From NCBI GenBank assembly GCA_963664305.2, contig CAXXLV010000002.1, forward strand, positions 736,001 to 800,000: a stretch of DNA of 64,000 nt, given 5' to 3'. The position numbers and the translations under genes were made by a program. Below, piece by piece: positions 3,954-57,941 of the stretch (position 1 is the first letter of the stretch; each line of letters starts with the position of its first letter). The stretch is from an uncultured Aliarcobacter sp. (GTDB lineage Bacteria; Campylobacterota; Campylobacteria; Campylobacterales; Arcobacteraceae). The notes below the pieces were generated by a model. That model had not been told where the DNA came from and ran no database searches. It saw only the letters and a program-made list of their open reading frames with translations.

Positions 3954-6519
3954 CTTTATTTTCGAAAACAATAGAAAAACAAGCACCTTTATATTGTTTT
4001 TGATTATAGGTAAACTCTTCGTTATAAATGTCTATTATACCATTGTGTCTTTCTCTTACAATTTTATCAACAATTGCAAGACCAAGACCAGTTCCTTGTG
4101 ATTTATGTTTTGTTGTAAAATATGGTTCTAAAACTTTAGAGATAATTGACTCTTCAATTCCACCACCACTATCTAAAAAGTTTATTTCTAATCTATTTTT
4201 ATCAAGTTGTTTTGTTTTTATAAAAATAAATCTATCATCTTCATCTTTATCTTTTAATACATCTTTACTATTTGAAATGATATTTAAAAAAGCTTCTGTT
4301 AATTCATTTTTATTACCATAAATTTCTAAATCAGCATCAATATCCAAAACTAAATTTATAAAGTTATTATGTAAAGAAGCATGTATAAGATTTAATGTAT
4401 TTTCTAAAATCTCTTTTATACTAATCTCTTTATTTGATTTATCTTCTTTAATAAAATCTCTAAAATTATCAATTGTATTTGATAAATATTCTGTTTGTTT
4501 CACAATAGATTTAGATGTCTCTTCAATATCCTCTTTATTTAACATATTAAATTCAGATTTTACTTTTAAAGCACTTGCACTTGTACTAATAAAACTTAAA
4601 GGTTGTCGCCATTGATGAGCAATATTTCCTATCATTTCTCCCAATGATGCCAATTTTGCTTGTTCTTGCATAATTTTTAATGAACTAACATCTTTAATAA
4701 GTAGTAAAAGTCTCTTTTTATCAGGAAGCAATGATAAGTTCAAATTAACAGAAACTCTTTTTTCTCCAAATAAAAATACATTTTCATAATTACTAATAAA
4801 TCCATCTGAGATTACTTTATCTAAAATCTTTTTATTGTTTTCAATATCTGGAGATATACAAAAATCAAATAACCTTTTTTCTTCTAAAACCTCTTTTGGT
4901 TCTTTTATCATTTCAATCAAAGAATCATTAAATTTAATAAATTTTGTATCTAAATCAAGTATTGCTATACCATCTTTAGAATAATTAAAAATCAATTCAA
5001 ACTCTTGTTTTTGTTCTAATATCTGTTTTTGATTAAATTCTTTTTCCGAAATATCAATTCCAATAGTTGCTAAATAATCCATAGAATCATCTTCTTTTTG
5101 AACAAGCATACTTGACCATTCAAAAACTCTCTCTTCACCACTTCTTGAAATCCAAGAGTTTTTAAAATTCTTAATAATATTTCCTTTTTTTGCTTCATCT
5201 ATAATATTAATTACTTTATCTCTTATATTCTCATTTAAAAATCTTGACCAAAAAAATGGAACACTTGATATCTCTTCTTGCGTATATCCAACAAATTCTT
5301 GTGCATATTTATTTACTTTAAACATAACACCATCACTATTAATTACAGCAATAATTGCATTTGAGTTATCTATAATTGTAGAAATAAAATCCCTATCTTT
5401 TATTATTTGTTTTTCTAAATTTTTTCGCACTGTCAAATCACTGTGAGTTCCAAGCATTCTAATAGGCTTATTATTTTTATCAAGAATAACTTTTCCACGA
5501 GTCAAAATCCAAACATAATTTCCAGATTTATTTCTCATTCTTATTTCTAAAAAATATTTGTTATCAATTGGATTTTCAAAATAGTTTTTTAGACTATCTT
5601 TTACTATTTTTTTATCATCAGGATGAACTAGATTGAAAAAAGAATCAGCATTATTTTCTATTTCATCATCTTCAAAATCTAATAATTTTTTCCATTTAGC
5701 AGAAAAATAAGTTTCATTTGTTATTAAATCCCAATCCCAAATACCTTCATTTATACTCTCAATTACTAACTCAAATCTATTATTAATTTCATCAATTTTA
5801 AATCTAGAATTTTTAATAGTTGATATCATAGTGTTCATTTTAGAAATTAATTCATTTAACTCTTTTGTATTATGTAAAGGAATTGCATTTTTAGGTAAAC
5901 CATCTTCAGAATCATTTTGAATTACATCTATGATATTGTAAATTGGTCTTAAAACAAAGGTTTTAATCATAAAAAATAAAAGAGTAATAATGATTAAAGA
6001 AGAGATTAAAATTTCATATAAACTTCTTTGAACGATTATATTTAACTCTTCTTCTAAATGTTTATTTGTAGAATATATCATTATTTTTGCGATTTCAATA
6101 TCTGAATTTTTAAGAGTTAATTCTTTAACTGAAAAATTATTTTTGATTATTATTTGCTGTTTTAAATCATTTTCTTTAAAACTTACAATCTTATCATCTA
6201 TTTTTAATTTTCCACTTTCTACATAATCTTTACTAAAAATTTTTCCATAATTATAATCTTTGATTGTAATAGCTAATATATTTTTATTTTTTAGTTGATT
6301 TTCTATTAGTTTTTCATATTCATTAATTGCATATGAATTAATAAAATAAGGAAGCATATCTTTTAACTGTAAAGATACAGATTCAACATCTAAAGTTATT
6401 TCATTGATTAATCGTTTTTTTGTTTCAAAATAGTTATAACTTGTATAAAGAGACATAATTACTATTACGAAAAATAATAAGGGAAAAAGAAAAGAGACTA
6501 TTAAAGAGTTATTTCTCAT
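3937..6519 (-). CDS. membrane-bound multi-PAS sensor histidine kinase
   Basis: Two TM segments, PAS/PAC domains (EGIWDWD...WILTRG), H-box [10 protein letters not shown]-box NIISNS, G-boxes DSGGGI and GTGLGL. Confidence 0.92.
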
Positions 6520-44359: not shown

Positions 44360-47065
44360 TTAAACCAAATTAATCAAACTCTCTCTTAATTTTTTACTTT
44401 CTTGACTTTCATTAGTTGCAAATCTAACTATTGGAATATTATATTTTTCTAATATTTCATCCTTTAATTTATCCCGCTTTAATTGAGTTGGATTATTTTC
44501 ATGGTACTCATAACCATCAACTTCAATAGCTAACACTATCTGTTTATCGATTTTGCTATATATTATAAAGTCTATATGAGTATTTTCATTATTTACAAAT
44601 TTAATTTCTTTTTCATTCAATAAACTATAATCTTTAACTATTCTATATAATTGCATATGTAATACAACATCTAAGTGAAGAAAACTTTCATCTTCTAATA
44701 CTTCATCAATTACAAGACACATTAAATTTTCAGATTTATGTTCAGATACATTTTTATACTTTTTTTGATATTTATTTAAATGTGAAGAATAACTTTTATA
44801 AAGTAAATCAAATATTGAGTAAATTTTACTTTCTAGAACATCACAGTTATAATATTTAATATAACCTATTAAATCTTTCATATTTTTATTTTTTTCTCTA
44901 TCTGAAACTACAACATAAAGCTTATCTACAGCTCTAGAGATTGCAACATTCAATAAGTTCTTATCATCAGCAAATTCATCTTCATCATTTACTACAGTAC
45001 TTAAAATAATTATATTTTTTTCACGACCTTGATATTTATGTACAGTATCAACTTCTATTTCTTTATTATTATTCTTATACTCTTCATTTATTTTATCTAC
45101 TTGTTTTCTAAATGGAGAGATTATTCCTATACTAGTATCTTTTAAATCAGGTAATATCTCATTAGTAATTACATCAATTTGACGTTGATTGTATTTTCCT
45201 CTTGCATGATTTCCTTCTACAGTATTAAATAAAACTAAAGATGATTCATTTTCATTTTCAAATTTTGTTAAAACTATTAGCTCATTATTATAAAATTTCT
45301 TATTACAAAAACCTATAATTTTTGGATTACATCTATAATGCTCTCTTAAAAGAGTTTTAGGAACATCTTTAAAAAGTTTAGTAATTGATAGTAACAAATT
45401 ATTATCATAATGATATGATTCATTAACTTTATATTGATTATAAACAATTTGAATTAAATCTTTTGTTTCCTTTGTAACTACATGAGGTAGTTGTTTTAAA
45501 TCACCAACAATAACTACATTTTTTGCACAAGATAAAGCTAAAGAACCTGCAACCACATCAACTTGTGAAGATTCATCTATTATCAAATAATCATATAAAT
45601 AGCTATTTCCTGTAGAGTTTCTTAATGAATGAGTTGTACTTAAAACAATAGGATATTCTTCAATAAAACTTCCAAAATCTTTCCATAAGACATCACTATT
45701 AAAACTTGTTCTCTTATTTGCAAATTTATATTTATTTGATATAAACCTTTTTAATAAAAACATTGACTTTTGAGTATATAACTTCATTTTATTTTCAAAA
45801 TCAAAGTTTGATAACTTACTTTCAAAAGTATTTATTTGTTTAGTTATTTCAATCTCTTTATTTTCATAAAATAAACTTTGAAGATATTCAATTATAGAGT
45901 TTATTGGATATTTGTAAATTGAAAAAGAAAAGAGCCTATATTTTATGAGATTCTTTATTTTAAACAAAAGCGTTATCTTTTTATTTAAAAGTTGAATATT
46001 CTCAAACTCTGCCCATAAAGAAAGTATAGAATCAATATCGTACTTGTTGAAACTTTTAAAATATTCTATATTTTTATCTTTTTTATCATAGTAATCTAAA
46101 AAATGTTTTTTTTCTACTTTAAATTCTTCATATAGTTGTTTTTGTAATGCTAATTCATTCTGAGTAGATAACATCTCTTTAAGAGATTTACTATCTTGAC
46201 TTACTTCTTTATATAGTTTATTAAAATCAACCTCAGTTTTTTCACTTACAAAGTTAGGATAACTGCTATCTTGATTATTAAAAAACTCTTCTTGATTATC
46301 TTTATTACCTAAAAATGCTGATATAAAAGACAAATCGTGACTACTTAATTTATCATATACATTTTTTGTTGCCGCATTATTATTTGACACAATAGCAACT
46401 GTTTTTTCTTGCATTATAATATTTGATAAAATATTTAATATAGTTTGTGTTTTACCAGTACCTGGAGGTCCTTCAATAATACTTATTTGATTTGTTAGTG
46501 CATTTTCTACAGCTTTTTCTTGACTTAAATTAAAACCAAAAGGAAAGATAATTGTAGATCTATTTTCAAAAGTATCAATACTACTAGAAGCTAAATATTT
46601 AGATAAGACACTATCTTCACTTATGAAAGTCATTTTTTTATATTGTTTATCTAAAAATCCAACTTCTTCTTTATCATCCGTATTATTTAATCTTTCTGCT
46701 AAACTTTTTAAATACTCTAATACACTATTTACCCTATTATCATTTAAACAGTTTTTTTCTATTTTAATACGCTTTTTATCATATAATTTATTAGTACCAT
46801 TTTCATAAAAAATCTTTAAATGACTTTTAAAATCAAGAATTCTAACTATTTTGAATAATAGTTTTCCATCTAAAAAAACAATACAACTATTTAAGTTTAT
46901 CTCTATGGGATTTTCCATTATCTTAACTTTCTCTAAACTATATGAATATTTAGTATCATTACTTTTAAAAACTACATCAACTTTATTTTTATTAATATCA
47001 AAACTTTCAATCTCTTCTGTTTTATCAACATCATTTATTAGAATTAAATACTTATTTATATCCAT
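44360..47065 (-). CDS. SF1 (Upf1/DNA2-like, AAA_11/AAA_12) helicase with C-terminal DUF2726/Vsr-like nuclease domain
   Basis: EGPPGTGKT, DESSQ, GDLKQL, HYRC, TVHKYQGRE, NVAISRA; C-terminal HIDF...AIEVDGYEYH...RDKLKD. Confidence 0.88.
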   Translation of the reverse strand: MDINKYLILINDVDKTEEIESFDINKNKVDVVFKSNDTKYSYSLEKVKIMENPIEINLNSCIVFLDGKLLFKIVRILDFKSHLKIFYENGTNKLYDKKRIKIEKNCLNDNRVNSVLEYLKSLAERLNNTDDKEEVGFLDKQYKKMTFISEDSVLSKYLASSSIDTFENRSTIIFPFGFNLSQEKAVENALTNQISIIEGPPGTGKTQTILNILSNIIMQEKTVAIVSNNNAATKNVYDKLSSHDLSFISAFLGNKDNQEEFFNNQDSSYPNFVSEKTEVDFNKLYKEVSQDSKSLKEMLSTQNELALQKQLYEEFKVEKKHFLDYYDKKDKNIEYFKSFNKYDIDSILSLWAEFENIQLLNKKITLLFKIKNLIKYRLFSFSIYKYPINSIIEYLQSLFYENKEIEITKQINTFESKLSNFDFENKMKLYTQKSMFLLKRFISNKYKFANKRTSFNSDVLWKDFGSFIEEYPIVLSTTHSLRNSTGNSYLYDYLIIDESSQVDVVAGSLALSCAKNVVIVGDLKQLPHVVTKETKDLIQIVYNQYKVNESYHYDNNLLLSITKLFKDVPKTLLREHYRCNPKIIGFCNKKFYNNELIVLTKFENENESSLVLFNTVEGNHARGKYNQRQIDVITNEILPDLKDTSIGIISPFRKQVDKINEEYKNNNKEIEVDTVHKYQGREKNIIILSTVVNDEDEFADDKNLLNVAISRAVDKLYVVVSDREKNKNMKDLIGYIKYYNCDVLESKIYSIFDLLYKSYSSHLNKYQKKYKNVSEHKSENLMCLVIDEVLEDESFLHLDVVLHMQLYRIVKDYSLLNEKEIKFVNNENTHIDFIIYSKIDKQIVLAIEVDGYEYHENNPTQLKRDKLKDEILEKYNIPIVRFATNESQESKKLRESLINLV

Positions 47066-47071
47066 ATAACT

Positions 47072-48550
47072 TTACTTTATCTTTCTTAAGTTCTCTAATA
47101 TCTTCACCATTGCCAAAGTATCCAGTTTGCAATACTCTAAAAGTGAGTTTCTTAGTTTTAGTTTCTCTTTTTCATCTAGTGAACCTAGTCTTGAAAAAGC
47201 ATTCATAGCTTGGCTTCCATTTTGAACACCATCAAGTTCTTTGTAGGCTTTCTCAAACTCTGGAACAAGTGCTGGAAGTACATATTTGATAGAGTAACTT
47301 CCTTGCATAGCTGGAGTTACATACCACTTTTTTTGAAAAGGTACCATGAGGTCTTGCATATTTTCATTTATAGCCAATAAGTGTCCACTAAACTCTTCAA
47401 ATAATGTTGCCAATCTTTTTATAACACCTTTTTCAAAACTCATGTTATAAGCTAATACAGTTACATCACTTGGAATATCTTCACATAGTCTAAGAGCGAG
47501 TTCATATCTACTATCAACACTATCTTGTGCTAAATACTCTTTGTGTTCTAATGTTCCATCTTCATATTCAATATGAAGTGAGTATTGAAATGGTATTTGC
47601 TCAAAAGGTTTTATACCTTTAAACTGTGGTATTGCTTGTTGATAGGTTTCAAAGTCTAAATGATATATTGGGTAAGTAAGACTTTGTAAAAATGATTTAA
47701 TATTTTCTATATCTATATATGTGATTTTTGATTTATAGTTTTCAACAGCTTGTGCTTGAATAGAAGTCATATCAAAGTCATGTGGTACATCATCTATATT
47801 TATAATACCTCTTTTATAAAGTTCAATTTGTTTTTTACTTCCAAGATTAAAAATATTAAATATAGAATAATCAGGTATTTGTCTTTGAACTTTCCAACAA
47901 TACTCTTTTCCATCACATTCATAAGGACTATTACAATGTTTACCTATATCTATATTTGGTTCGTTTTCTTTATCATTTAAATATGTTTCAAACTCTTTTA
48001 AAATATTTGGAATATTTGATTGCATTGATATAACATCATTTGTAACATCAACTATTTTAAAAAGTTGATGTATATCTAAGTCATCACCTCTTATATATTC
48101 ATTATTTATATAAATTACATTTGCACTTTTTATTTTTAAACCTAAATTTTTAAGTACATAATACTGAATAGATACATCATGTAAATATATATCTTTTACT
48201 TCAGTAGAACTTTTAACTTCATAAATAGAGACTTCACCATTAGAAATAGTTAAAATATCTACCATAATTAAAATACCTGAAAAGTTAAAAGTAGCTTCAT
48301 AGATATTCTCTATTCCCTCATCAAGTAACTGTTTTGTAGTAGCTATCATCTCATCATAGTTTTTTGAATATGGCACTTCTTTTCCATCAGGGAAAAGCTG
48401 ACAAGCAAAATCTCCAACTATGTTTCCAGTTTCAAATATAGCTTGGGCTGATTCATCTGGTGGTGTTAATACACTTGGCTTATATTTTTTAAGCCAAAGT
48501 GCTTTGGGGCATTGAATGCCTTTTGTGTAGAGGGATTTAGATAGGTTCAT
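47072..48550 (-). CDS. DUF2779-domain protein (Cas4/RecB-like N-terminus plus RNase H/DEDD-like C-terminus)
   Basis: LSKS...QCPKALWL, VDIL...YEVKS, CNSPYEC....YC; LDFET...PFQYSLH...YNMSFE...SYSIKYVLPAL...YCKLDT. Confidence 0.85.
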   Translation of the reverse strand: MNLSKSLYTKGIQCPKALWLKKYKPSVLTPPDESAQAIFETGNIVGDFACQLFPDGKEVPYSKNYDEMIATTKQLLDEGIENIYEATFNFSGILIMVDILTISNGEVSIYEVKSSTEVKDIYLHDVSIQYYVLKNLGLKIKSANVIYINNEYIRGDDLDIHQLFKIVDVTNDVISMQSNIPNILKEFETYLNDKENEPNIDIGKHCNSPYECDGKEYCWKVQRQIPDYSIFNIFNLGSKKQIELYKRGIINIDDVPHDFDMTSIQAQAVENYKSKITYIDIENIKSFLQSLTYPIYHLDFETYQQAIPQFKGIKPFEQIPFQYSLHIEYEDGTLEHKEYLAQDSVDSRYELALRLCEDIPSDVTVLAYNMSFEKGVIKRLATLFEEFSGHLLAINENMQDLMVPFQKKWYVTPAMQGSYSIKYVLPALVPEFEKAYKELDGVQNGSQAMNAFSRLGSLDEKEKLKLRNSLLEYCKLDTLAMVKILENLRKIK

Positions 48551-51063
48551 TAATTAATCTTATTATTAATTTCATCAATTAATATTGTAGACATTTCAAA
48601 AGATTCTAAATCTTGTTTTTTTAACCATTCTTTACATTCTGCTCTTGTCATACTTGAGGTAGGTGTATATTCTGATAATAATATAGCCGTATTTCGACTA
48701 AGTCCTAGTTCAATAAATGATAGTTGAGTTTTCTGTGAAACACCAAATTCTAACCAAATAGTTAATTCAGGAATTTCTTCTAATAATTTTTCTTTTCCTT
48801 TTTCTTTCAAAACCAATCTTAAAATATCCATATAGCAAGATGAATATTTAGCAAATTTAAATCTAGCATATGTTTCTATATCTGCCATTACATCTCTAAT
48901 AACACTATCTCTTTTTTTTCTTTTACCCCAGTATTTTAAGCTTTTTTGTATCATAAAAGATAACTTATAACCTCTTATCCATCTAACAATTAAAGAAGCA
49001 TGATAATAAGATACTCCATTAAAATCTCCAGAAAGATGAGTATTTACTATTTCCACAATTTTTTGAAATGACTCTACAGCGTTATCAGAGTGAATATCAT
49101 CAGGAATAAATTTTTTAAACTTTGTTTCACTATTTAAAAACAGATATAATTCCTGTTGAGCAATAGGACTAATACCTACATGTTTTTTTAATAATGCATC
49201 AGGAATAGTTATGTTTTCTTTCAATTTCGAGAAAGTAGATTCAAGCTGTTTTTCTTTTTTTTCATCTTTTATAAGATTACTTAACTTATTATCTAGCCAC
49301 CTTGTATAATAAAAATTAAATGCATACTCGAATGACATATTATTATTTTTTGATAACTCTTCTCTTGGTGTTCCCTTATCTATAAAAGCTAAAAATTCAT
49401 CAAAATTATTATTAATAATTGTTGTCGCTTTAATGATTTCATTTTTCTTATTTTGTAAAGAAGGTATAGTATTCCATTTATTCGTATCTATACAAATAAT
49501 ATTACCTTGAAATTCTTTACCTAATCTTCCTGCTCGCCCTGCTAAGTTCCAAAAATCAGTTTGTGTCATATCTAATTTTGTTGCCCTTTTAGGTTTTCTA
49601 ATAAAAATATTTTTTGCTGGTAAATTAACTCCTTCTAGTAATGTTGAAGTGCAAAAAATATATTTTATTTCACCTTGTTCAAATAGCTTTTCTATTTCTT
49701 GTCGAATTATTAATGGCATATTTCCATAATGAAAAGCAATTCTCTTTCCTAAAACTTTTACTAAATTATAATTTGGATGAATACTATCTTTTACTAGTTT
49801 AATCAATTCGTTAATTTTCTTATTATCTGTAACAATATCATCTATTAAAATATTGAAAAGCTTAATTGCATGTTCTTCCGTATAAGAAGGTTTATATTGA
49901 TATATTAAATTACCTCCTTCTTTATTAGCAAGTTTTTGAATAATTTTTACTAATCTTTGAGCTTCTTGAATACTTTCATCAAAACTAAAATTAGCAATTT
50001 TAAACTGTCCAAAATTACTAACTAAATCTATTTTCCAGTTTTTAGTACTGCCAGATTCCGAAGATACAAATAATAGATTTTGATTAACTGCTATATAATC
50101 TTTATTAACTTTATCATGTTTTTTATTTTCAATATTAGGCAAATTTTCAAATAATATTTCTGGATTTTTAGTAAAAGGTGAAGCAAATATAGTTTGAATA
50201 TTTTCATTATTTTCAATTACTTCTATAAGTTTTTCTTCAACTAATATACCTCTATGTCCTTGTTCTACTTGTTGTGCTTCATCAACAATAAGTGTATCAA
50301 TCTTAGTTTGATTATCAACTAAAAACCAATGTAATCTTTCTTGAGTAAACACAAAAATTTTTTTTGAAAAAGTTTCTTCAGGAATCTTTGGTACTGTAGA
50401 TAAATATATATTTTCAAGATTTTCTTTTTTTAATAGTTTTCTTATATCATTTTCAACTTGATTTATTAAAGCTCTTGTTGGCACTAAATATATAATAGTC
50501 TCATCATTACTATTTATTATTTTATCTAAAAGAATCTGACTTAGAATAAATGATTTTCCAGAAGAAGTAGGTGAAGATATACTAATAAATTGATTACTTT
50601 TAACTTTTGAATATACTTCACTTTGAAAACTATTCAAAGAAAGAACTTTACCATTTATTAGGATAGTATTGTGTAAATTGTTATTAATAATCTTCAATTG
50701 TAAAATTGAAGATAACTTTTCAAAATAATTTTTTTCAATTAAATTTTTATCTATAGCTAACTCAATTGTTCTATTGTTTGTTAAATTATTTAAAATTACA
50801 GCACAGGACTCTTTCTGTACAATATTTGAATCTTCATAGTTAATTATGGTTTGTGCAATTCTTAAAGCAGTTTCCATATGTAATGTTTCATTAGACTTTG
50901 ATAAAATACTTGCTATTGAAATTACATTATTAATATCTATTGTTTCATGTAAATTATTTTGAAGTTTAGTAAATTGACTAAGAACTGAATATCGTAAAAG
51001 TTTCTTATATTGGTCTTGAAAACTGTCAAGAGAATAAAGCTTTGTTGAAATATTTTCATTCAT
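48550..51063 (-). CDS. hamB: Hachiman HamB-like SF2 (Ski2-type DEAD/DEAH) helicase
   Basis: SPTSSGKS, VPTRALI, TQER, DEAQ, TSTLLEGVNLPA, NLAGRAGRLG; directly downstream of a DUF1837 gene. Confidence 0.85.
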   Translation of the reverse strand: MNENISTKLYSLDSFQDQYKKLLRYSVLSQFTKLQNNLHETIDINNVISIASILSKSNETLHMETALRIAQTIINYEDSNIVQKESCAVILNNLTNNRTIELAIDKNLIEKNYFEKLSSILQLKIINNNLHNTILINGKVLSLNSFQSEVYSKVKSNQFISISSPTSSGKSFILSQILLDKIINSNDETIIYLVPTRALINQVENDIRKLLKKENLENIYLSTVPKIPEETFSKKIFVFTQERLHWFLVDNQTKIDTLIVDEAQQVEQGHRGILVEEKLIEVIENNENIQTIFASPFTKNPEILFENLPNIENKKHDKVNKDYIAVNQNLLFVSSESGSTKNWKIDLVSNFGQFKIANFSFDESIQEAQRLVKIIQKLANKEGGNLIYQYKPSYTEEHAIKLFNILIDDIVTDNKKINELIKLVKDSIHPNYNLVKVLGKRIAFHYGNMPLIIRQEIEKLFEQGEIKYIFCTSTLLEGVNLPAKNIFIRKPKRATKLDMTQTDFWNLAGRAGRLGKEFQGNIICIDTNKWNTIPSLQNKKNEIIKATTIINNNFDEFLAFIDKGTPREELSKNNNMSFEYAFNFYYTRWLDNKLSNLIKDEKKEKQLESTFSKLKENITIPDALLKKHVGISPIAQQELYLFLNSETKFKKFIPDDIHSDNAVESFQKIVEIVNTHLSGDFNGVSYYHASLIVRWIRGYKLSFMIQKSLKYWGKRKKRDSVIRDVMADIETYARFKFAKYSSCYMDILRLVLKEKGKEKLLEEIPELTIWLEFGVSQKTQLSFIELGLSRNTAILLSEYTPTSSMTRAECKEWLKKQDLESFEMSTILIDEINNKIN

Positions 51064-51066
51064 TAT

Positions 51067-51993
51067 CTAAACTCCTAATTCTGCTAAGAAATTATCTCTA
51101 AACTCTTGAACACTTGGAAATGGTAAAATAAACATATGTATTATAAAACTATCCAAATAAATATGTTCATTAATTTGCTCTTTAACCTTAGCTTTCCAAT
51201 CTGATATTTTTAAATTAACTTCATCAATAACATCTTGAATAATTTTTGAATTAGGAGTATTAGGATATTTATTAAAATCAAATCCTACTAAAGCAACACC
51301 TCTATAATTTACACTATTATAATTTGGGTGATTTTTATCAAAATAGTTTACAAGTGCATTTTGGAATTCTTCATCTCTAACATCAATATTGTCATGTATT
51401 AATTCTATATCTCTATCTGTAGATGAATTATTTTGTAAGAAATTATTTAAACTTTCAAAACATTCTTTTATTGCAGTTCCATAAGTTTGATGAAGCTTAG
51501 ATTCACCCCAATATACTTCTAATTGACCATTTTCTCCTAATGTACAATGTATTCCATCTACACCATGATAATGAACATGTTGACTAGTTTTAAGTGGCAT
51601 TTTACAAATCAATTGTGGTATTTTTAAAAATTCTTCTACTAAAATATACAATAATAATTCACCACCTTCACCTGAAGTTTTTAAATGTGTAAAAAGGTTA
51701 ACAGCTTTTTCTCTAAGTTCAAGAGCATGTGCAAATCCACCTTCATCAGCATCTTTTTTTTGTGCAGCCATTATTTCACTTTTAGGTATTGCATAGTTTA
51801 TTACTCGATGAGATAAATATTTTGCAAAATCTTTAACCCTTGGTAATCCATTACCATTTAATTCTAAACAATGAACACAAGTAGTAGTTTTTGTATCATC
51901 AATTTCAGAATGAAGTTCTATAGTTTTTATATGTGCATTTATATTATCAGATTGACTACTTATTAATTCATCAAATTTTTCTCTTGTTAACAT
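51067..51993 (-). CDS. hamA: Hachiman HamA (DUF1837) nuclease
   Basis: SGEGGELLLY, PQLICKM.LKTS, HGVDGIH, WGESKL, LPFPSV. Confidence 0.88.
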   Translation of the reverse strand: MLTREKFDELISSQSDNINAHIKTIELHSEIDDTKTTTCVHCLELNGNGLPRVKDFAKYLSHRVINYAIPKSEIMAAQKKDADEGGFAHALELREKAVNLFTHLKTSGEGGELLLYILVEEFLKIPQLICKMPLKTSQHVHYHGVDGIHCTLGENGQLEVYWGESKLHQTYGTAIKECFESLNNFLQNNSSTDRDIELIHDNIDVRDEEFQNALVNYFDKNHPNYNSVNYRGVALVGFDFNKYPNTPNSKIIQDVIDEVNLKISDWKAKVKEQINEHIYLDSFIIHMFILPFPSVQEFRDNFLAELGV

Positions 51994-51997
51994 TCAT

Positions 51998-53818
51998 TTA
52001 ATCCTTACATAAAATATATGGCTCTATACCATAGTCTTGACATGAAGATATAAAACTACTTAATAACCAAACTAATTGAATCAAATGTGAATTAGGAATA
52101 GAACTTGTCAGCATTCTTTGTAATTTATTATCTAAAGAATTTTTACTAAAAAATGGTGTTGCAAGATAAATACGTTTTTTCGAATTAGTTTTAGAATAAA
52201 CTCTTTCCAACGAATCTTTAATTTCACTAAATGAATTAAAAACATTTCCATCTTTTCTTAAACGACAAATATTTGTTGACTCATAATTTTTACACCATTT
52301 GTCATTATACTTTATTTCATAATCTTTAATTGAAGCATTAACTCTACCAATATTTTTTAAAGCTTGAGAAACTACTTCATGCATTACACTTGCACTATAT
52401 TTATCTTTCTTCACAAATTTAGAATGAATAAATGATATACTATTTTCATCAATGTATATATGATCTGCCCATTCATTACCCATATCATCACAAATTAATA
52501 TTCCATTATTAAAGTTTTCTTCAACTCTATAAAACAATGAATTGGAAGGAAATCTGTTTAATAAATTAAAATGATTTTTCTGAGCTAAAGTTGCATTTTT
52601 TCCAGGTTTACACTTTTCGGAATCTATATCTCCTCCATTAAGTAAATTATTATTAGTTTCACAAATTGATAATATTTTATTAATATTCATTTGTGTTAAC
52701 AACTGTTTATCAGAAAAAGCATATTTACCTATATATGCATACTTTGGTTTATCAAAAATGATTGTGTAATTTTTATTTTCATTTATAAATTTTAAAATAG
52801 ATTCTTGCCCTTGGTCATCTAAATAAACCTTTTCAATTTGACTATTTTTTAAAGATATTGATTTATTATTTATTTTAAGTTCTCCAAATTTTTTCCCTTT
52901 TAATTGTATTTTATAAATACTATCACTAACATGTTCAATATGAAATATTTTTCTTAATGTAATAAATAATTTCTTTAAATCATCATTCTCTAATTTATGA
53001 GGTTGAGAATTTTGATCAAAATAGTACAAATCTCTAATACCATTTTCAATTTCATTTTCTAACTTATAAAAATGAAATAATATTCCAATTGGAGAAGAAT
53101 CATCCATAATATCTTTTAAATTTATTGGATTTGCAAAACCATTTATGAATTCACTTTCCACATCACTTTCCACATCAGAAATAATGCTTAGACACCAAGA
53201 AATATAATCATCTAATTTTGCCTTTGTAGATCGTTGACCAATTCGTGATGAATTTGGAGTTATTGAAAAAGTATCTCCTTGTTGATTTATTCTAATATTT
53301 CGAGGAACGGATCTACTTGAAGAAGTTAATGGCATAATTCCATTTAAATTATCTGCTTCATAACTTCTTGATCGTATAACCGCATCTGAAATTGTCATAT
53401 TTCCCATAGAAATCTTTTCATATTTTGTATTATCTGAAGCTTTAAAATGTACAAATTTATCATAATCAAAATAATCTATATAATTTTCTAATTCTTTTTC
53501 AATACCCGTTATATTTTTCTTACTGATAAATATATAGTTATCATTCTCAATAATTACTAAATATGCATATTTTATCTCATTTTCTTCAGTACCACATAAG
53601 AAAGAAGGTTCTTCATCGAATTTAAAAGACATTATTGAAAAAGAAATGTTTTCATTTATATCTGATTGTTTTTTTATTTCTTTAATTACATAATTTCCTT
53701 TTTTTTTGGTTGATAAATTTATAAATACTCTTGTTATCTTATTTTCTGACAGACTTTTTAATTTTTTATATATTTGTACACTTTTTGATAACTCAACATT
53801 TTGTAATTCTATTGACAT
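51998..53818 (-). CDS. 606-aa hypothetical protein with putative C-terminal PD-(D/E)xK-like nuclease domain
   Basis: Intact long ORF with AGGA RBS; ICDDMGNEWADHI...FIHSK...HEVVSQALKNIG. Confidence 0.75.
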   Translation of the reverse strand: MSIELQNVELSKSVQIYKKLKSLSENKITRVFINLSTKKKGNYVIKEIKKQSDINENISFSIMSFKFDEEPSFLCGTEENEIKYAYLVIIENDNYIFISKKNITGIEKELENYIDYFDYDKFVHFKASDNTKYEKISMGNMTISDAVIRSRSYEADNLNGIMPLTSSSRSVPRNIRINQQGDTFSITPNSSRIGQRSTKAKLDDYISWCLSIISDVESDVESEFINGFANPINLKDIMDDSSPIGILFHFYKLENEIENGIRDLYYFDQNSQPHKLENDDLKKLFITLRKIFHIEHVSDSIYKIQLKGKKFGELKINNKSISLKNSQIEKVYLDDQGQESILKFINENKNYTIIFDKPKYAYIGKYAFSDKQLLTQMNINKILSICETNNNLLNGGDIDSEKCKPGKNATLAQKNHFNLLNRFPSNSLFYRVEENFNNGILICDDMGNEWADHIYIDENSISFIHSKFVKKDKYSASVMHEVVSQALKNIGRVNASIKDYEIKYNDKWCKNYESTNICRLRKDGNVFNSFSEIKDSLERVYSKTNSKKRIYLATPFFSKNSLDNKLQRMLTSSIPNSHLIQLVWLLSSFISSCQDYGIEPYILCKD

Positions 53819-53830
53819 AATTTTTATCCT

Positions 53831-54652
53831 CTAAATAATTTCCAAAACACTCGTCCCATCACCCTTATGTTCAACCTTTATCTGCAATGGAATTCGCTCT
53901 TTTAGTGCTTCCACATGGGAAATCACACCTACCATCTTTCCTGAACTTTGTAGTTGATTTAGTGCTAGTTCTAAACTATCAGCATCTAGTGTCCCAAACC
54001 CTTCATATAAGAAAAGTGAATCTATACTTATCTTTTGACTTGCAAGGGCTGAAAGTCCAAGAGCAAGTGAAAGACTTACTATAAAACTTTCCCCTCCTGA
54101 GAGTGTACTTACAGGTCTTAATACATCCCCTTGAAAACCATCAATTATTTCTATTTCAAATAATTTATTTGAATCACTACTTCTTTGAAGTTCATATCTT
54201 GGACTTAGTATTTGTAAATGTTTATTTGATATATAGATAAGTTGGTCTAAAGTAATACCTTGGGCAAATTTAGCAAATTTATCTCCACTTGCTAAACCTA
54301 CCATTTCATTTAGTTTTATCCATACTTTAAATGCTTCTTTTTTCTTCTCTAACTCTTTGATTTTATCTTCATGTTTTTTCATATTTGAAGCATTGATTTC
54401 AAGCTCTTTTTCTAAACTACCTATTGATTTTTGAAGTTCGTCAATAGCTGTTTGTAACTCTTTTGATTCAACATAATAGATAATTTGTGGAGTTCCAGTA
54501 TCAAAAATATCTCCTGATATAACTAAAACTTCAACTTGTTTTTCTTTTATAATTTCTAAAAGCCAAGAAAGAAAAGCTTCATGCTCTTCAGCTCTACTTT
54601 TCCCCATAAAATTTTGACCAAGATGCCAATCAGATGTATGTAATAAACGCAT
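53831..54652 (-). pseudogene. in-frame SbcD(N-terminus)-SbcC(C-terminus) deletion chimera
   Basis: LHTSDWHLG and SGDIFD (SbcD/Mre11 motifs I-II) joined at about 54487 to coiled coil, LSGGE, LFLYEGFGTLD and ISHV (SbcC/Rad50 C-terminus). Confidence 0.88.
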
Positions 54653-55094
54653 AAATATCCTATACAAACTTTATACATTTATTATAACTATCAAATAACT
54701 CTTTTTTGACTCTTTTTTATTATTAGATTATTTTAAAACTTAAAATAGAAAAAAAATTATATGTTTATACTATTTTTAGCTAGAAAATAAATTATTAGAA
54801 ATTTAAAAGTTAATTGGAGAAAATACATATAAACTTAATATTTTTTTATTCATTTATATTATTAAATTAACTAACTATCTTTTAATAATAACTATTTTGA
54901 ATAAAACTAAAGAAACAATAATCTAATATTTAACACAAGTAAAAGTGTTGTACAATCACATAATTTTTCTTCTCCCTTATATCATATTTTCTAAATTTTA
55001 AACCATTATTATGCTAATAAAATACTATTAAACTAATAGTAAATTAATATCACTTTATATATAATTTAATACTAATAATATAAAAGGAATTTGA

Positions 55095-55757
55095 ATGATA
55101 ATTTCAGTGTGTAATGAAAAAGGTGGTAGTGGAAAAACTACAATTGCCTTAAATATTGCAGTTAAACTTGGTCTTTTAAAAGAAGATACTTTATTAATTG
55201 ATGCAGACCCTCAAAGAAGTATTGAAGTATTTACTAATATTAGAGCTAATGAAAATATTGATCTTATTTTTAATACTGTTTCAAAATTTGGAAGCAGTCT
55301 TGGTAAAGAAGTTAAAAGCTTACAAAATAAATATTCTTCAATTGTAATTGATACAGGTGGTAGAGATAGTGAAGAAATGAGACAAGCATTAGCAATTAGT
55401 GATTTAGTAATTATTCCAACACTTCCAAGTGATTTAGATATTGCTGTTTTAAATAAAATGATAAATCTTTTTAATCAAGCTAAAGCTTTTAACCCAAATG
55501 CTAAAGCATTAATTACTATTTCTAAAGCTAGCCCAAATCCTTTTCTAACTAAAAAAATTAAAGATTTAAAAGAATATATTAAAGATAAAAATCTTGAAGA
55601 TATAAAACTTTGTGAAAGTGTAATATTTGAAAGAGAAGCATATAAAAACTCTTTTTCAAATGGTTTAGGTATCTTAGAATTCCTTGATGAAAAAGCTAAA
55701 GCTTATCAAGATTTTAATAACTTCTTTGATGAATTAGTTGAATATGTAAATAATTAG
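55095..55757 (+). CDS. parA: plasmid-type ParA partition ATPase
   Basis: KGGSGKTT, IDADPQ, VIDTGG, IIPTLPS.LD. Confidence 0.92.
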   Translation: MIISVCNEKGGSGKTTIALNIAVKLGLLKEDTLLIDADPQRSIEVFTNIRANENIDLIFNTVSKFGSSLGKEVKSLQNKYSSIVIDTGGRDSEEMRQALAISDLVIIPTLPSDLDIAVLNKMINLFNQAKAFNPNAKALITISKASPNPFLTKKIKDLKEYIKDKNLEDIKLCESVIFEREAYKNSFSNGLGILEFLDEKAKAYQDFNNFFDELVEYVNN

Positions 55758-55825
55758 TTAGTATTTATTTACTAATAAAATAATATTAATATATAAATAA
55801 ATAATAATTAAAATAAAGGTTTAAA

Positions 55826-56119
55826 ATGAAAGAATCAATATTTAAAAAGAATGAAAAAAAATCATTCGCTTTTGTAGAAGATGATAGTTTAGATAATGAA
55901 GTAAAACAATTAGATGAGTTTGTAAGCTCTGCAAGAGGTGAGTCTAAAAAGGTCTTAAACCCTAAAGGTAGACCTAAATTAAATAATGATGAATTAAAAC
56001 AAGAACAAATAGTGATTTATCTTACAAAAGAGCAAAAAGATGAAATCACTAAAAAAGCAAAACAATCATCTTTAAGTGTTTCAAAATATGTAATGCTAAA
56101 GGTTTTTGGGATAAGTTAA
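55826..56119 (+). CDS. ParA partner, putative ribbon-helix-helix centromere-binding protein
   Basis: GRPKL...IVIYLT.EQK...LSVSKYV; follows parA. Confidence 0.65.
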   Translation: MKESIFKKNEKKSFAFVEDDSLDNEVKQLDEFVSSARGESKKVLNPKGRPKLNNDELKQEQIVIYLTKEQKDEITKKAKQSSLSVSKYVMLKVFGIS

Positions 56120-56485
56120 TATAAAAAAGAAGAATTGAACCTAAAAAAAGAATAGATTTAAAAAGAGATATTTTAACAAAAAACTTTATTGAACTAAAAA
56201 TTAGTCACTAAAATAGTCACTGTTTCTCTTATGAATTTATTAATATTTAAGTTTATAAATTTTACAATTAATCATCTCTTTGAGATTCGCTGCTGATTAA
56301 TGCGAGAGTTAATGTGTGATAGGATTATCCCTTTAACTTGACAATCCATAAATACTCTGTAATTTATGTTATAACAAGTTGTTAATAACATAGTAAATTA
56401 CAAAGATTTAGTATTCATATACCCACTTGACGATCACTATTTTATTTAATAACTTGTTTCAAATAATATTAAAACAAGGATTATT

Positions 56486-57151
56486 ATGAAAGATAATAAA
56501 ATAGCAGTTTTTTTTGACTGTGAGAATATAAGTTCAAGATATGTTGATGAAATCATTGATGAATTAGCAAAAGTTGGTGAAGTAATTATTAAAAAAGCTT
56601 ATCATAATTGGAGAGAAAATTCTTCAACTCATTGGGATGATAAACTTAAAGAGTTTGCAATTGATGCAATTCAAGTTTTTCCAAATATAACAGGTAAAAA
56701 TGCAGCTGATAGTAAATTAATAATTGATGTAATGAATACTATTTATCAGTCAGGAATTAATACTATATGTATTGTATCTAGTGATAGTGATTTTACTGTC
56801 CTTGCATCAGAAATTAAGTCTAAAAGTATAGCTAGTATTGGATTTGGAGAAAAAAAGACTCCAGAAAGTTTAAGAAAAGCCTACACTACATTTTATGAAT
56901 TACCAGTAAAAAAGAAAAATAAAGATATAGTAAGTTTATTATTAGATGCAATAAATGATCTAAAAGATGAAGATGATTATGTGAATATTTCTACTATTAC
57001 AAAATATTTGTTAAACAAAGATTCTTCTTATATTCCACAAAATTATGGATATAAAAAATGGAGCGACTTAATAAAAGAAAAAAAATCATATTTTATTTAT
57101 GAATATAGAAATAATAACAGTTCTTTTATGGTAAAAGTAAATAGTAATTAA
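56486..57151 (+). CDS. NYN (LabA/DUF88, PIN-like) ribonuclease with C-terminal OST-HTH/LOTUS
   Basis: FFDCEN, GKNAAD, SSDSDF, NYGYKKWSDL. Confidence 0.9.
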   Translation: MKDNKIAVFFDCENISSRYVDEIIDELAKVGEVIIKKAYHNWRENSSTHWDDKLKEFAIDAIQVFPNITGKNAADSKLIIDVMNTIYQSGINTICIVSSDSDFTVLASEIKSKSIASIGFGEKKTPESLRKAYTTFYELPVKKKNKDIVSLLLDAINDLKDEDDYVNISTITKYLLNKDSSYIPQNYGYKKWSDLIKEKKSYFIYEYRNNNSSFMVKVNSN

Positions 57152-57332
57152 ATTAATACAAAATATAATTAAAAATTGATTTATGATAAATTTTTTTATA
57201 AGATGTTTATTGTTGTTCAAAGTTTAATTATATTTTATAAATTTAGGATTATAGTTTCTAAGTATGTTTTAGGGTTTACAGATCAACAGATCAATTTTAA
57301 ATGTACTTCTAAAACATTACTTTTGTAATAAA

Positions 57333-57941
57333 TCATCTAATCAAAGCCTCCCTAATCTGCTCATCAGTAGGCTTTATATATCCCATTGTTGTACTTACAT
57401 TTTTATGTCCAACAAATTGGGATATGATTTTTATGTTTATTGATTTACTTCCCATTTCTGTAATTAATCCTTGTCTAAAGCTATGAGAAGAATATCCTTC
57501 TCCTAAAATTTCTTTAATGGTTTTATTTACTTGTTGTATAAACACTATATTATTAATAGAAGTTCTTTTATTTTTATCACTACCTTTTGAAATAATTTTA
57601 TTATCATCAAGTTCATTTTTAAAATCAAATAGTTTTACAAGTTCTTTTTGAAAAGAGTTAGTTAGATATAGTTTTCTTTGAGTAGATGTTTTTGAAATAT
57701 CTAATTTTACATTTCCATCTTGTAATAAATTTTTTATATCTTTTATTTTTAGTTCTTGAACTTCATTTAATCTAAGACCTGTAAAAAATAAAATAGTAAA
57801 AGTTCTAAGAAGATTTTGTTTTGTATTAAATCTAAGATTTTCATCTCCTCTTATAAATGACATTAGTTTTTTATATTCAACTTCAGTGATATTTTCTTTA
57901 ATTCTTTTTATCTCTTTTTTTTCATCAACTTTTTTACTCAT
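57333..57941 (-). CDS. short tyrosine recombinase (catalytic domain only; resolvase-like)
   Basis: TGLRLNE, SKT, HSFR, GHKNVSTTMGY: R-K-H-R-H-Y set intact; 202 aa. Confidence 0.92.
   Translation of the reverse strand: MSKKVDEKKEIKRIKENITEVEYKKLMSFIRGDENLRFNTKQNLLRTFTILFFTGLRLNEVQELKIKDIKNLLQDGNVKLDISKTSTQRKLYLTNSFQKELVKLFDFKNELDDNKIISKGSDKNKRTSINNIVFIQQVNKTIKEILGEGYSSHSFRQGLITEMGSKSINIKIISQFVGHKNVSTTMGYIKPTDEQIREALIR

Follow-up and report, generated by a model that had tools for sequence, protein, structure and literature searches.

In the present work we analyse a stretch of 64,000 nucleotides from an uncultured Aliarcobacter sp. (contig CAXXLV010000002.1; hereafter the window, meaning the whole stretch), in which a gene for a 606-aa protein, here called S71, lies immediately upstream of hamA and hamB, the two genes of a Hachiman system. 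A sequence-only reading of this DNA had proposed that the three genes form a new three-component variant of Hachiman. By contrast, we propose, with a probability of roughly 0.6, that S71 and the type I Hachiman are two stacked, independent systems in a defence hotspot, which are probably co-transcribed. Judged by its profile match, S71 is a member of the widespread, catalogued single-gene candidate family PDC-S71 and, as we infer from its predicted folds, it would be a self-contained DNA-targeting effector, while HamA and HamB, by their domain and model matches, are a canonical type I Hachiman. S71 is therefore not a new Hachiman component in general but a catalogued candidate that is stacked with an ordinary Hachiman. 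The three genes are the following.

51998-53818, minus strand: S71, 606-aa gene with ATG start, full-length match to PADLOC PDC-S71
51067-51993, minus strand: hamA (DUF1837 nuclease), 308 aa, matched by PF08878 and PADLOC HamA1
48550-51063, minus strand: hamB (SF2 helicase), 837 aa, matched by PADLOC HamB1 and by Pfam DEAD, ResIII and Helicase_C

The membership of S71 in a named family is seen in its match to the PADLOC model PDLC05077 (PDC-S71), with an E value of 4.6e-180 and 598 bits, where residues 4-605 of the protein align with positions 3-588 of the 589 positions of the profile. The protein itself is not different from the PADLOC-DB v2 entry, sharing its single-gene architecture of ~590 aa, but here the gene stands in an operon-like array with Hachiman, unlike the catalogued single gene. 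S71 has no match in Pfam (E<=0.01), in NCBIfam or in the PDB, the last being searched both by sequence and by profile, and none of 37 family members has a match in Pfam, RdgC included, even at E<=5. In a word-indexed search 162 relatives were found, all annotated as 'hypothetical', in Aliarcobacter, Vibrio, Aeromonas, Pseudomonas, Yersinia and others, and a profile made from 37 members recovers 1354 cluster representatives at E<=1e-3 (486 at the stricter cut-off of E<=1e-30), which with few exceptions are 580-620 aa long and matched end to end. Because the homologues are numerous, of similar length and matched end to end, the S71 open reading frame (ORF) is a genuine gene rather than a frame that is open by chance; the G+C content of the window is 25.5%, and in such stop-rich DNA long open frames are rare. 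According to the part of Payne et al. (bioRxiv 10.1101/2024.01.29.577857) that was accessible, the 145 PDC systems are single- and multi-gene candidates described as untested, and the set traces back to genes that lie inside BREX, DISARM and type I restriction-modification systems. The occurrence of S71 relatives within type I restriction-modification clusters (L027 and L046) is consistent with the derivation given in that part of the preprint. In the literature searched, with the supplementary tables of Payne et al. not covered, no text naming PDC-S71 was found, and no 'RdgC-like' paper dealing with defence was found in it either. The second suggestion of the sequence-only reading, a stand-alone undescribed defence gene, thus stands in one half: stand-alone fits the family-wide data, whereas undescribed does not hold for a member of PDC-S71, even though the latter is a named untested candidate only.

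The neighbourhoods of the homologues give a direct measure of whether S71 travels with Hachiman. A scan of genome contigs yielded 259 S71 relatives, from which 80 loci were kept, and PADLOC models were run on 247 flanking ORFs, taking on each side of S71 no more than two ORFs, each of 100 aa or longer. HamAB is present within two genes of S71 in 3 of the 80 loci, as found by tblastn with HamA and HamB of the window, namely in L001 and L002, both of Arcobacteraceae, and in L072, and the PADLOC scan places Hachiman models in these three loci and in no others. In L072, from Zoogloea, HamAB lies upstream of S71 at a distance of ~540 nt, with a small opposite-strand ORF in between. At least one neighbour with a PADLOC model is present in 42 of the 80 loci, and these neighbours are varied (AbiD, Shedu, PDC-S15, PDC-S06, type I restriction-modification, Avs2, GajB-like, RmrAT, HEC-06, DinG, HNH effectors and others); across 77 of the 80 loci the neighbours differ with no family recurring, the exception being the Arcobacteraceae clade with HamAB, and gaps of more than 100 nt flank most S71 genes. 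Seen from the other side, HamA is over the cut-off in 13 of 184 Arcobacteraceae genomes, 10 of which are without S71, and S71 is present in 5 of the 184; in two of these five (G019 and G084, with distant copies) no HamAB adjoins S71. Among the metagenome relatives at 26-38% identity, which account for 57 of 61 loci, no adjoining HamAB was detected when four HamA and four HamB sequences were used as tblastn queries, a search that is less sensitive than one with hidden Markov models. The association of S71 with HamAB is lineage-specific. A three-component Hachiman is therefore not borne out, with homologues so rarely next to hamAB, with most HamA genomes lacking S71 and with HamAB having been swapped alone, as shown below; an accessory role in Hachiman fails family-wide in the same way, and finds its support in the narrow clade (at least 50% identity), where HamAB is directly downstream of S71 in every context seen.

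The two Hachiman genes, whose identities as given by the sequence-only reading are confirmed, are themselves ordinary. HamA matches PF08878 with E 1.1e-60, this being its only Pfam domain, and PADLOC HamA1 with 2.8e-116, while HamB matches PADLOC HamB1 with 2.5e-261 over residues 3-836. With the B. cereus HamA cluster P0317, which is named 'Anti-bacteriophage protein A/HamA', HamA shares 45% identity, as against only 27% with the HamA of the sister species. Its residues D146, E164 and K166 do not vary across 25 HamA sequences. In comparison with the type I Hachiman of B. cereus and E. coli ECOR31, hamA and hamB here satisfy the definitions by sequence, with the conserved residues of HamA retained, and the difference is the extra upstream gene S71, which the evidence suggests to lie outside the Hachiman cassette. 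It had also been noted, rightly, that S71 is unlike the HamC of type II or AbpA: in Pfam, S71 has no HamC domain (DUF3223, as that reading gave it) nor any other domain, and no Cap4 is fused to HamA here. As in canonical Hachiman, HamAB would need no third protein, the helicase holding the nuclease until DNA damage is sensed.

The site in which the two systems lie is bounded by two genes, of which the left one is a remnant.

53831-54667, minus strand: sbcD'-'sbcC remnant, 278 aa, with NCBIfam SbcD at residues 6-61 and SbcC at residues 67-274
47072-48550, minus strand: DUF2779 / Cas4-like gene, 492 aa, right hotspot flank (PF11074, E 3.9e-46)

Among 44 genomes of the genus, 18 carry the DUF2779 gene, and nine matches, spread over eight genomes besides this one, are ~90% identical to it. 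Seven relatives having a DUF2779 copy that is 85-91% identical were fetched, and in six of them the cargo was annotated, with 23 of 32 cargo ORFs scanned and L178 left out. The frame sbcD-sbcC-[cargo]-DUF2779 is kept in five of the seven (G007, G012, G014, G016 and G043), while an sbcD-like start is all that was found upstream in G022, and no sbcDC was seen in G019. The cargoes are as follows.

G000 (the window) and G028 (L001): S71 and Hachiman
G007: QatA, QatC and QatD
G012: SIR2-HerA, a NucC-like gene, MkoA and MkoB
G014: an OLD/Gabija-like gene and two unknown genes
G016: PDC-S06
G022: CBASS with E1-E2 and JAB, and a WYL gene
G043: Lamassu

The region enclosed by sbcC and the DUF2779 gene (48550-53844 of the window; loci L172-L177) is a defence hotspot in the genus, and because G012 holds several systems, independent systems do stack at this site. 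Short intergenic gaps are general for the cargo of the hotspot, as exemplified by L172, where 17 nt separate the end of the sbcC match from the first cargo ORF.

Moreover, the hotspot shows HamAB being exchanged beside S71. In L090 and L093, S71 is 92-95% identical in protein to the allele of L001 (the part in L090 being 96% identical in nucleotides), and their HamA and HamB proteins share 95% and 99% identity with those of the window. The S71 allele is the same in L001, L091 and L092, but the HamAB of these loci is only 27-31% identical to that of the window. L090 and L091 resemble each other as far as nt 1323, where S71 ends, and do so again once the DUF2779 gene begins at nt 4777, with the break of identity being exactly at the S71/hamA junction. 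Since the two loci are alike outside HamAB only, the two Hachiman genes have been swapped together, as one cassette, next to an S71 that stayed unchanged.

What S71 might do is suggested by its predicted structure. The full AlphaFold2 model, made with a 37-sequence alignment, has a mean predicted local distance difference test score (pLDDT) of 89.6 and a predicted template modelling score (pTM) of 0.79, and it is divided as follows.

53156-53806, minus strand: N-terminal domain, residues ~5-221, RdgC / CENP-L(Iml3)-like by structure comparison of the model
52646-53155, minus strand: middle domain, residues ~222-391, mixed alpha/beta, confidently modelled
52001-52645, minus strand: C-terminal domain, residues 392-606, PD-(D/E)xK-like in the domain model
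52418-52492, minus strand: putative active-site segment C443-D444-D445...E449-W450-x-D452...H465-x-K467, from conservation and the model

The sequence-only reading had not recognised the first ~400 residues, and the Foldseek comparison that it called for now places an RdgC-like fold within them. Against the PDB, the N-terminal region matches E. coli RdgC (2owl_B) with E 7.9e-6 and probability 1.00; in VIA-align, RdgC 2owl_A has Z 8.7 with a root-mean-square deviation of 4.6 A over 199 aligned residues (model residues 8-221), and the match is repeated at Z 8.5 in a structure search that is independent of Foldseek. The kinetochore proteins Iml3/CENP-L match the same region at Z 7.4-7.6, and in BFVD there are 15 matches to it at E<=1e-3, mostly phage RdgC. 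The middle domain is covered by none of the structure-search matches listed for the full-length model. The N-terminal domain is thus predicted to have the RdgC fold, without any sequence similarity between RdgC and S71, and from the fold it would be a DNA-binding clamp. According to PMC11077077, RdgC is a ring-shaped dimer with a basic pore, and RexA, which is the partner that binds DNA in the lambda Rex exclusion system, is RdgC-like. Lambda RexA is absent among the structure matches listed for S71, which may nevertheless resemble it, and the two differ in that RexA works with the membrane partner RexB whereas S71 has a predicted nuclease domain of its own. If a defence nuclease does have an RdgC-type fold, this would extend the link between the fold and phage exclusion that is known from RexA.

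The likeness to RdgC also raises the reading that S71 does not serve in defence but is a repair or recombination accessory, possibly processing recombination intermediates, or has a function for a mobile element. RdgC is a recombination-associated DNA-binding protein of which many phages carry homologues, and S71 follows sbcC by 12 nt both here and in L001, which would suit such a role. However, all kinds of cargo at the site closely follow sbcC, the adjoining sbcDC is broken in this genome, and S71 is patchy in the Arcobacteraceae, as the above count shows. In addition, about half of the S71 loci adjoin genes with PADLOC models, some in the restriction-modification clusters mentioned above, and the family is almost absent from phages (none of 50,697 phage records, and one locus with a family member in IMG/VR). 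Taken together, this makes the non-defence reading quite improbable, and we return to S71 as an effector.

The C-terminal domain, folded alone on 52 sequences, is modelled with pLDDT 93.5 and pTM 0.90. When this model is aligned to 48,161 PDB representatives (the VIA-align wide search), the best match is the cleavage domain of FokI (Z 7.2, 125 aligned, 3.2 A), followed by AF1548 (Z 7.0), the small subunit of R.BspD6I (6.9), E. coli HamA 8vxy_A (Z 6.6, 147 aligned), two CdiA-CT DNases (6.5 and 6.2) and LlaBIII (6.2), with McrC, Upx, SduA (Z 5.3), NucS, Can2, Card1, Avs4, MspJI, Hna, NucC and Hjc ranking lower. The top 26 matches are all PD-(D/E)xK nucleases or have that fold, except for an African swine fever virus RNA-polymerase subunit at rank 23. 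Because every Z is below 8, the fold call rests on the consistency across the matches, by which the PD-(D/E)xK restriction-endonuclease-like fold is established at prediction level, in agreement with the resemblance that had been seen by eye. The C-terminus contains ILICDDMGNEWADHIYIDENSISFIHSKFVKKDKYSASVMHEVVSQALKNIGR in the ORF translation, and the motif quoted from it before is indeed present there.

In the 52 sequences D444, D445, E449, W450, D452 and K467 are invariant, E433 is nearly so, and C443 and H465 are conserved in at least 90%. In the model, E433 is in the helix ahead of the sheet, D444 and D445 come after strand 1, E449 is in the next loop, D452 is at the start of strand 2 (453-456), H465-x-K467 is at the end of strand 3 (460-466), and Q485, K488 and N489 are in the helix following it, so that D452 and H465-x-K467 occupy the classical positions of D and (D/E)xK. 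On this model a nuclease activity of S71 is plausible, with E433, D444/D445, E449, D452 and H465-x-K467 as the putative active site. The resemblance to HamA stays at the level of the fold: in a comparison of the S71 profile with the HamA profile the hhalign probability is 1.2%, showing no sequence relation, and homology of the S71 C-terminus to DUF1837 was rejected at the profile level on that ground. An HKD (phospholipase D) motif was also considered, as HSKFVKKD fits HxK(x)4D, and was dropped with D472 not being conserved in the alignment.

In the mechanism that we propose, S71 would dimerise through its RdgC-like module, and the ring or horseshoe so formed would clamp DNA irrespective of sequence, modelled on the behaviour of RdgC, Iml3-Chl4 and lambda RexA. 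The engagement of DNA would then join the two C-terminal PD-(D/E)xK domains, leading to cleavage of the bound DNA as in dimerisation-dependent nucleases. A single polypeptide in which the N-terminal part engages DNA and a PD-(D/E)xK nuclease forms the C-terminus would be common to S71, Shedu (SduA) and FokI; S71 differs from the other two in its N-terminal fold and shows no sequence relation to them, with no SduA model match in PADLOC. This assignment of a predicted RdgC-like clamp joined to a PD-(D/E)xK nuclease is what is new for PDC-S71, and it gives the family a concrete, testable architecture.

A number of observations weigh against two independent systems of which S71 is a defence effector, and they are set out in the following. 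Two of them concern S71 itself. Firstly, PDC-S71 is an untested candidate, so that the defence role is itself something that we infer. Secondly, a histidine, the nearly invariant H465, is at the (D/E) position, by which catalysis is not assured. The latter could mean that the nuclease-like domain is inactive and that the protein only binds DNA, as a sensor or decoy, with the motif being D...H-x-K instead of D...(D/E)-x-K. This we consider highly improbable, because the invariance of D444, D445, E449, D452 and K467 and the near invariance of E433 and H465 point to an active site under selection; active PD-(D/E)xK enzymes with variants at the (D/E) position are known.

The other observations concern the bond with HamAB. 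In the S71 clade of the window (alleles A, B and C, at 50-59% identity), hamA and hamB are directly downstream in every context seen, with gaps between S71 and hamA of 3-10 nt (4 in the window, 8 in L001 and 3 in L002). The pairings of S71 allele and HamAB type are A+1 (the window), B+1 (L090 and L093), B+2 (L001, L091 and L092) and C+3 (L002), and they occur at two chromosomal sites, L002 being elsewhere with no sbcC or DUF2779 gene nearby. The three HamAB types are 24-35% identical mutually, which is as distant as each of them is from the HamAB of Zoogloea. Adjacent S71 and HamA are present in 3 of the 184 genomes, which is above independent placement for S71 in 5 and HamA in 13, in a count that ignores kinship, with two of the three adjacent pairs sharing one ancestral locus. 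Between S71 and hamA no convincing terminator-like site is found in the terminator scan, because of which co-transcription of S71 with hamA is likely and, as far as the sequence goes, S71 and HamAB are probably on a single transcript. Finally, fusions of an SF2 helicase to an S71-like module exist, one of which is in a Bacillus plasmid (L179 5717-8791, CP126687.1), where a protein of 1024 aa has ResIII/DEAD at residues 13-235 and PDC-S71 at 473-1000 (E 1.5e-34); their existence implies that the S71 family can work tethered to a helicase.

These observations would be accounted for by a partnership confined to one lineage, in which the S71 clade of the Arcobacteraceae has been recruited to work with Hachiman, a reading that we hold to be possible if tentative. 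In such a partnership S71 might cut or mark phage DNA upstream and so make the damage that HamAB senses, or it might modulate HamAB, and a stable three-protein complex would be unnecessary. Four combinations of allele and HamAB keep the order S71-hamA-hamB with the short gaps given above, over three deep HamAB lineages and two sites, and the ribosome-binding site of hamA lies within the end of S71, where a Shine-Dalgarno-like AAGGA is found 8 nt 5' of the hamA ATG. One RNA-library contig, which spans the 3' end of S71, hamA and the 5' end of hamB, adds a weak hint, since contigs cannot prove a single transcript. The depth over S71 in the RNA runs is low, to which we give no weight. In the accessible part of PMC12278908, Hachiman is reported to be triggered by DNA damage, the helicase restraining the nuclease until the damage is sensed, which would fit S71 as a source of damage. 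A precedent for lineage-specific extra genes is provided, in the part of PMC13064477 that was available, by Pez-Ham of Streptococcus and by the additional gene of hamC-hamA-hamB in Sphingopyxis, each with a lineage-restricted extra gene before hamAB as for S71 here; S71 is a predicted 606-aa clamp-nuclease and not a toxin-antitoxin pair as in Pez-Ham, and, unlike HamC, is without any Pfam domain.

By contrast, the same part of PMC13064477 gives the added Pez-Ham module as separable, with Hachiman alone needed for defence. Furthermore, 77 of the 80 family loci have no HamAB nearby, the Hachiman-bearing Arcobacteraceae genomes are mostly without S71, the short gaps are typical of all cargo at the hotspot, and the swap of HamAB beside an unchanged S71 means that S71 has not co-evolved with a particular HamAB. 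The helicase fused in Bacillus is not HamB-like either, having no HamB model match and no significant BLASTP match. A prediction of the complex of S71 with HamA scored 0.00 against a mark of 0.32, which is evidence neither way. A more specific form of the partnership, with the S71 clade as a front end of Hachiman whose clamp-nuclease would load on phage DNA, either invading or replicating, and nick or cut it, the damaged DNA then releasing HamA from HamB, we regard as unlikely; selection for such a front end would explain the three deep HamAB lineages behind one S71 clade, and also the S71-like fusions to other SF2 helicases in Bacillus plasmids. We thus keep two stacked, independent systems as the preferred reading, and note that the alleles and types A+1, B+1, B+2 and C+3 form a natural series with which the cooperation of neighbouring defence genes at a hotspot can be tested.

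The family also occurs in fusions and other unusual forms. The Bacillus fusion adjoins GajA and GajB (Gabija), and with the helicase part alone as a tblastn query 28 plasmid records were matched. In a Rhizobium plasmid (L180 6191-8404, NZ_CP072869.1) a helicase::S71-like fusion of 737 aa is followed by a truncated Cap4-nuclease gene. A protein of 1018 aa (P0133) has an N-terminal Peptidase_S41 (residues 148-363, E 3.1e-16) ahead of a complete S71 module (433-1018). At L008 7998-9762 and L034 7607-9419, S71 is seemingly split into two ORFs, of which the upstream one also matches PDC-S71, and these copies may be frameshifted or decaying. A lead from a protein atlas (score 0.87) that connected S71 with DUF6119 / TIGR04141 was dropped; a search of 401 genomes of the phylum and of 14 control genomes did not find DUF6119 / TIGR04141, and the literature naming it was unrelated to defence.

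As for the layout of the locus, the spacing given by the sequence-only reading agrees with the coordinates and with the sequence read directly: the S71 TAA is at 52000-51998 and the hamA ATG at 51993, leaving a gap of 4 nt, and the hamA TAG is at 51069-51067 and the hamB ATG at 51063, leaving 3 nt. A terminator-like hairpin at 43655-43635 marks the downstream end of an array that starts at the sbcD remnant. The promoter scan gives 107 sites with 97 expected and is uninformative in such A+T-rich DNA. A 25-kb contig from a gut metagenome, ~97% identical and from a near-identical strain, holds the entire stretch from S71 through HamAB to DUF2779. A wastewater DNA contig links 48550 to 53844, weakly, as one side has only 24 letters, and in wastewater runs the depth over the flanks is far above the depth over the cargo.

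Several features around the two systems are also noted. The sbcDC genes are broken here by an internal deletion of ~3.9 kb, which leaves SbcD residues ~1-61 joined to the final ~210 residues of SbcC. The ~97% identical metagenome contig has 3,948 extra nt exactly at the sbcDC junction, between 54474 and 54492 of the window. The Walker B aspartate is Y in the remnant (LFLYEGFG), and sbcC is intact in the relatives. Upstream of the remnant, 55095-57941 is mobile-element-like, with a ParA-like ATPase, a NikA-like protein, an NYN + OST-HTH protein and a 202-aa integrase-family ORF; the ParA-like, NikA-like and NYN proteins were not found by tblastn in the fetched flanks of the seven relatives, the integrase ORF not being among the queries. 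On the other side of the cargo, the DUF2779 gene is followed by one further gene.

44360-47065, minus strand: SF1 helicase with a C-terminal DUF2726/REase-like domain, 901 aa, with partial matches to PADLOC MkoC (2.3e-47) and MkoA (1.3e-44)

The right flank at 44360-48550 is thus a nuclease-helicase pair, made up of the DUF2779/Cas4-like protein and the SF1 helicase, which may be a further unnamed defence candidate.

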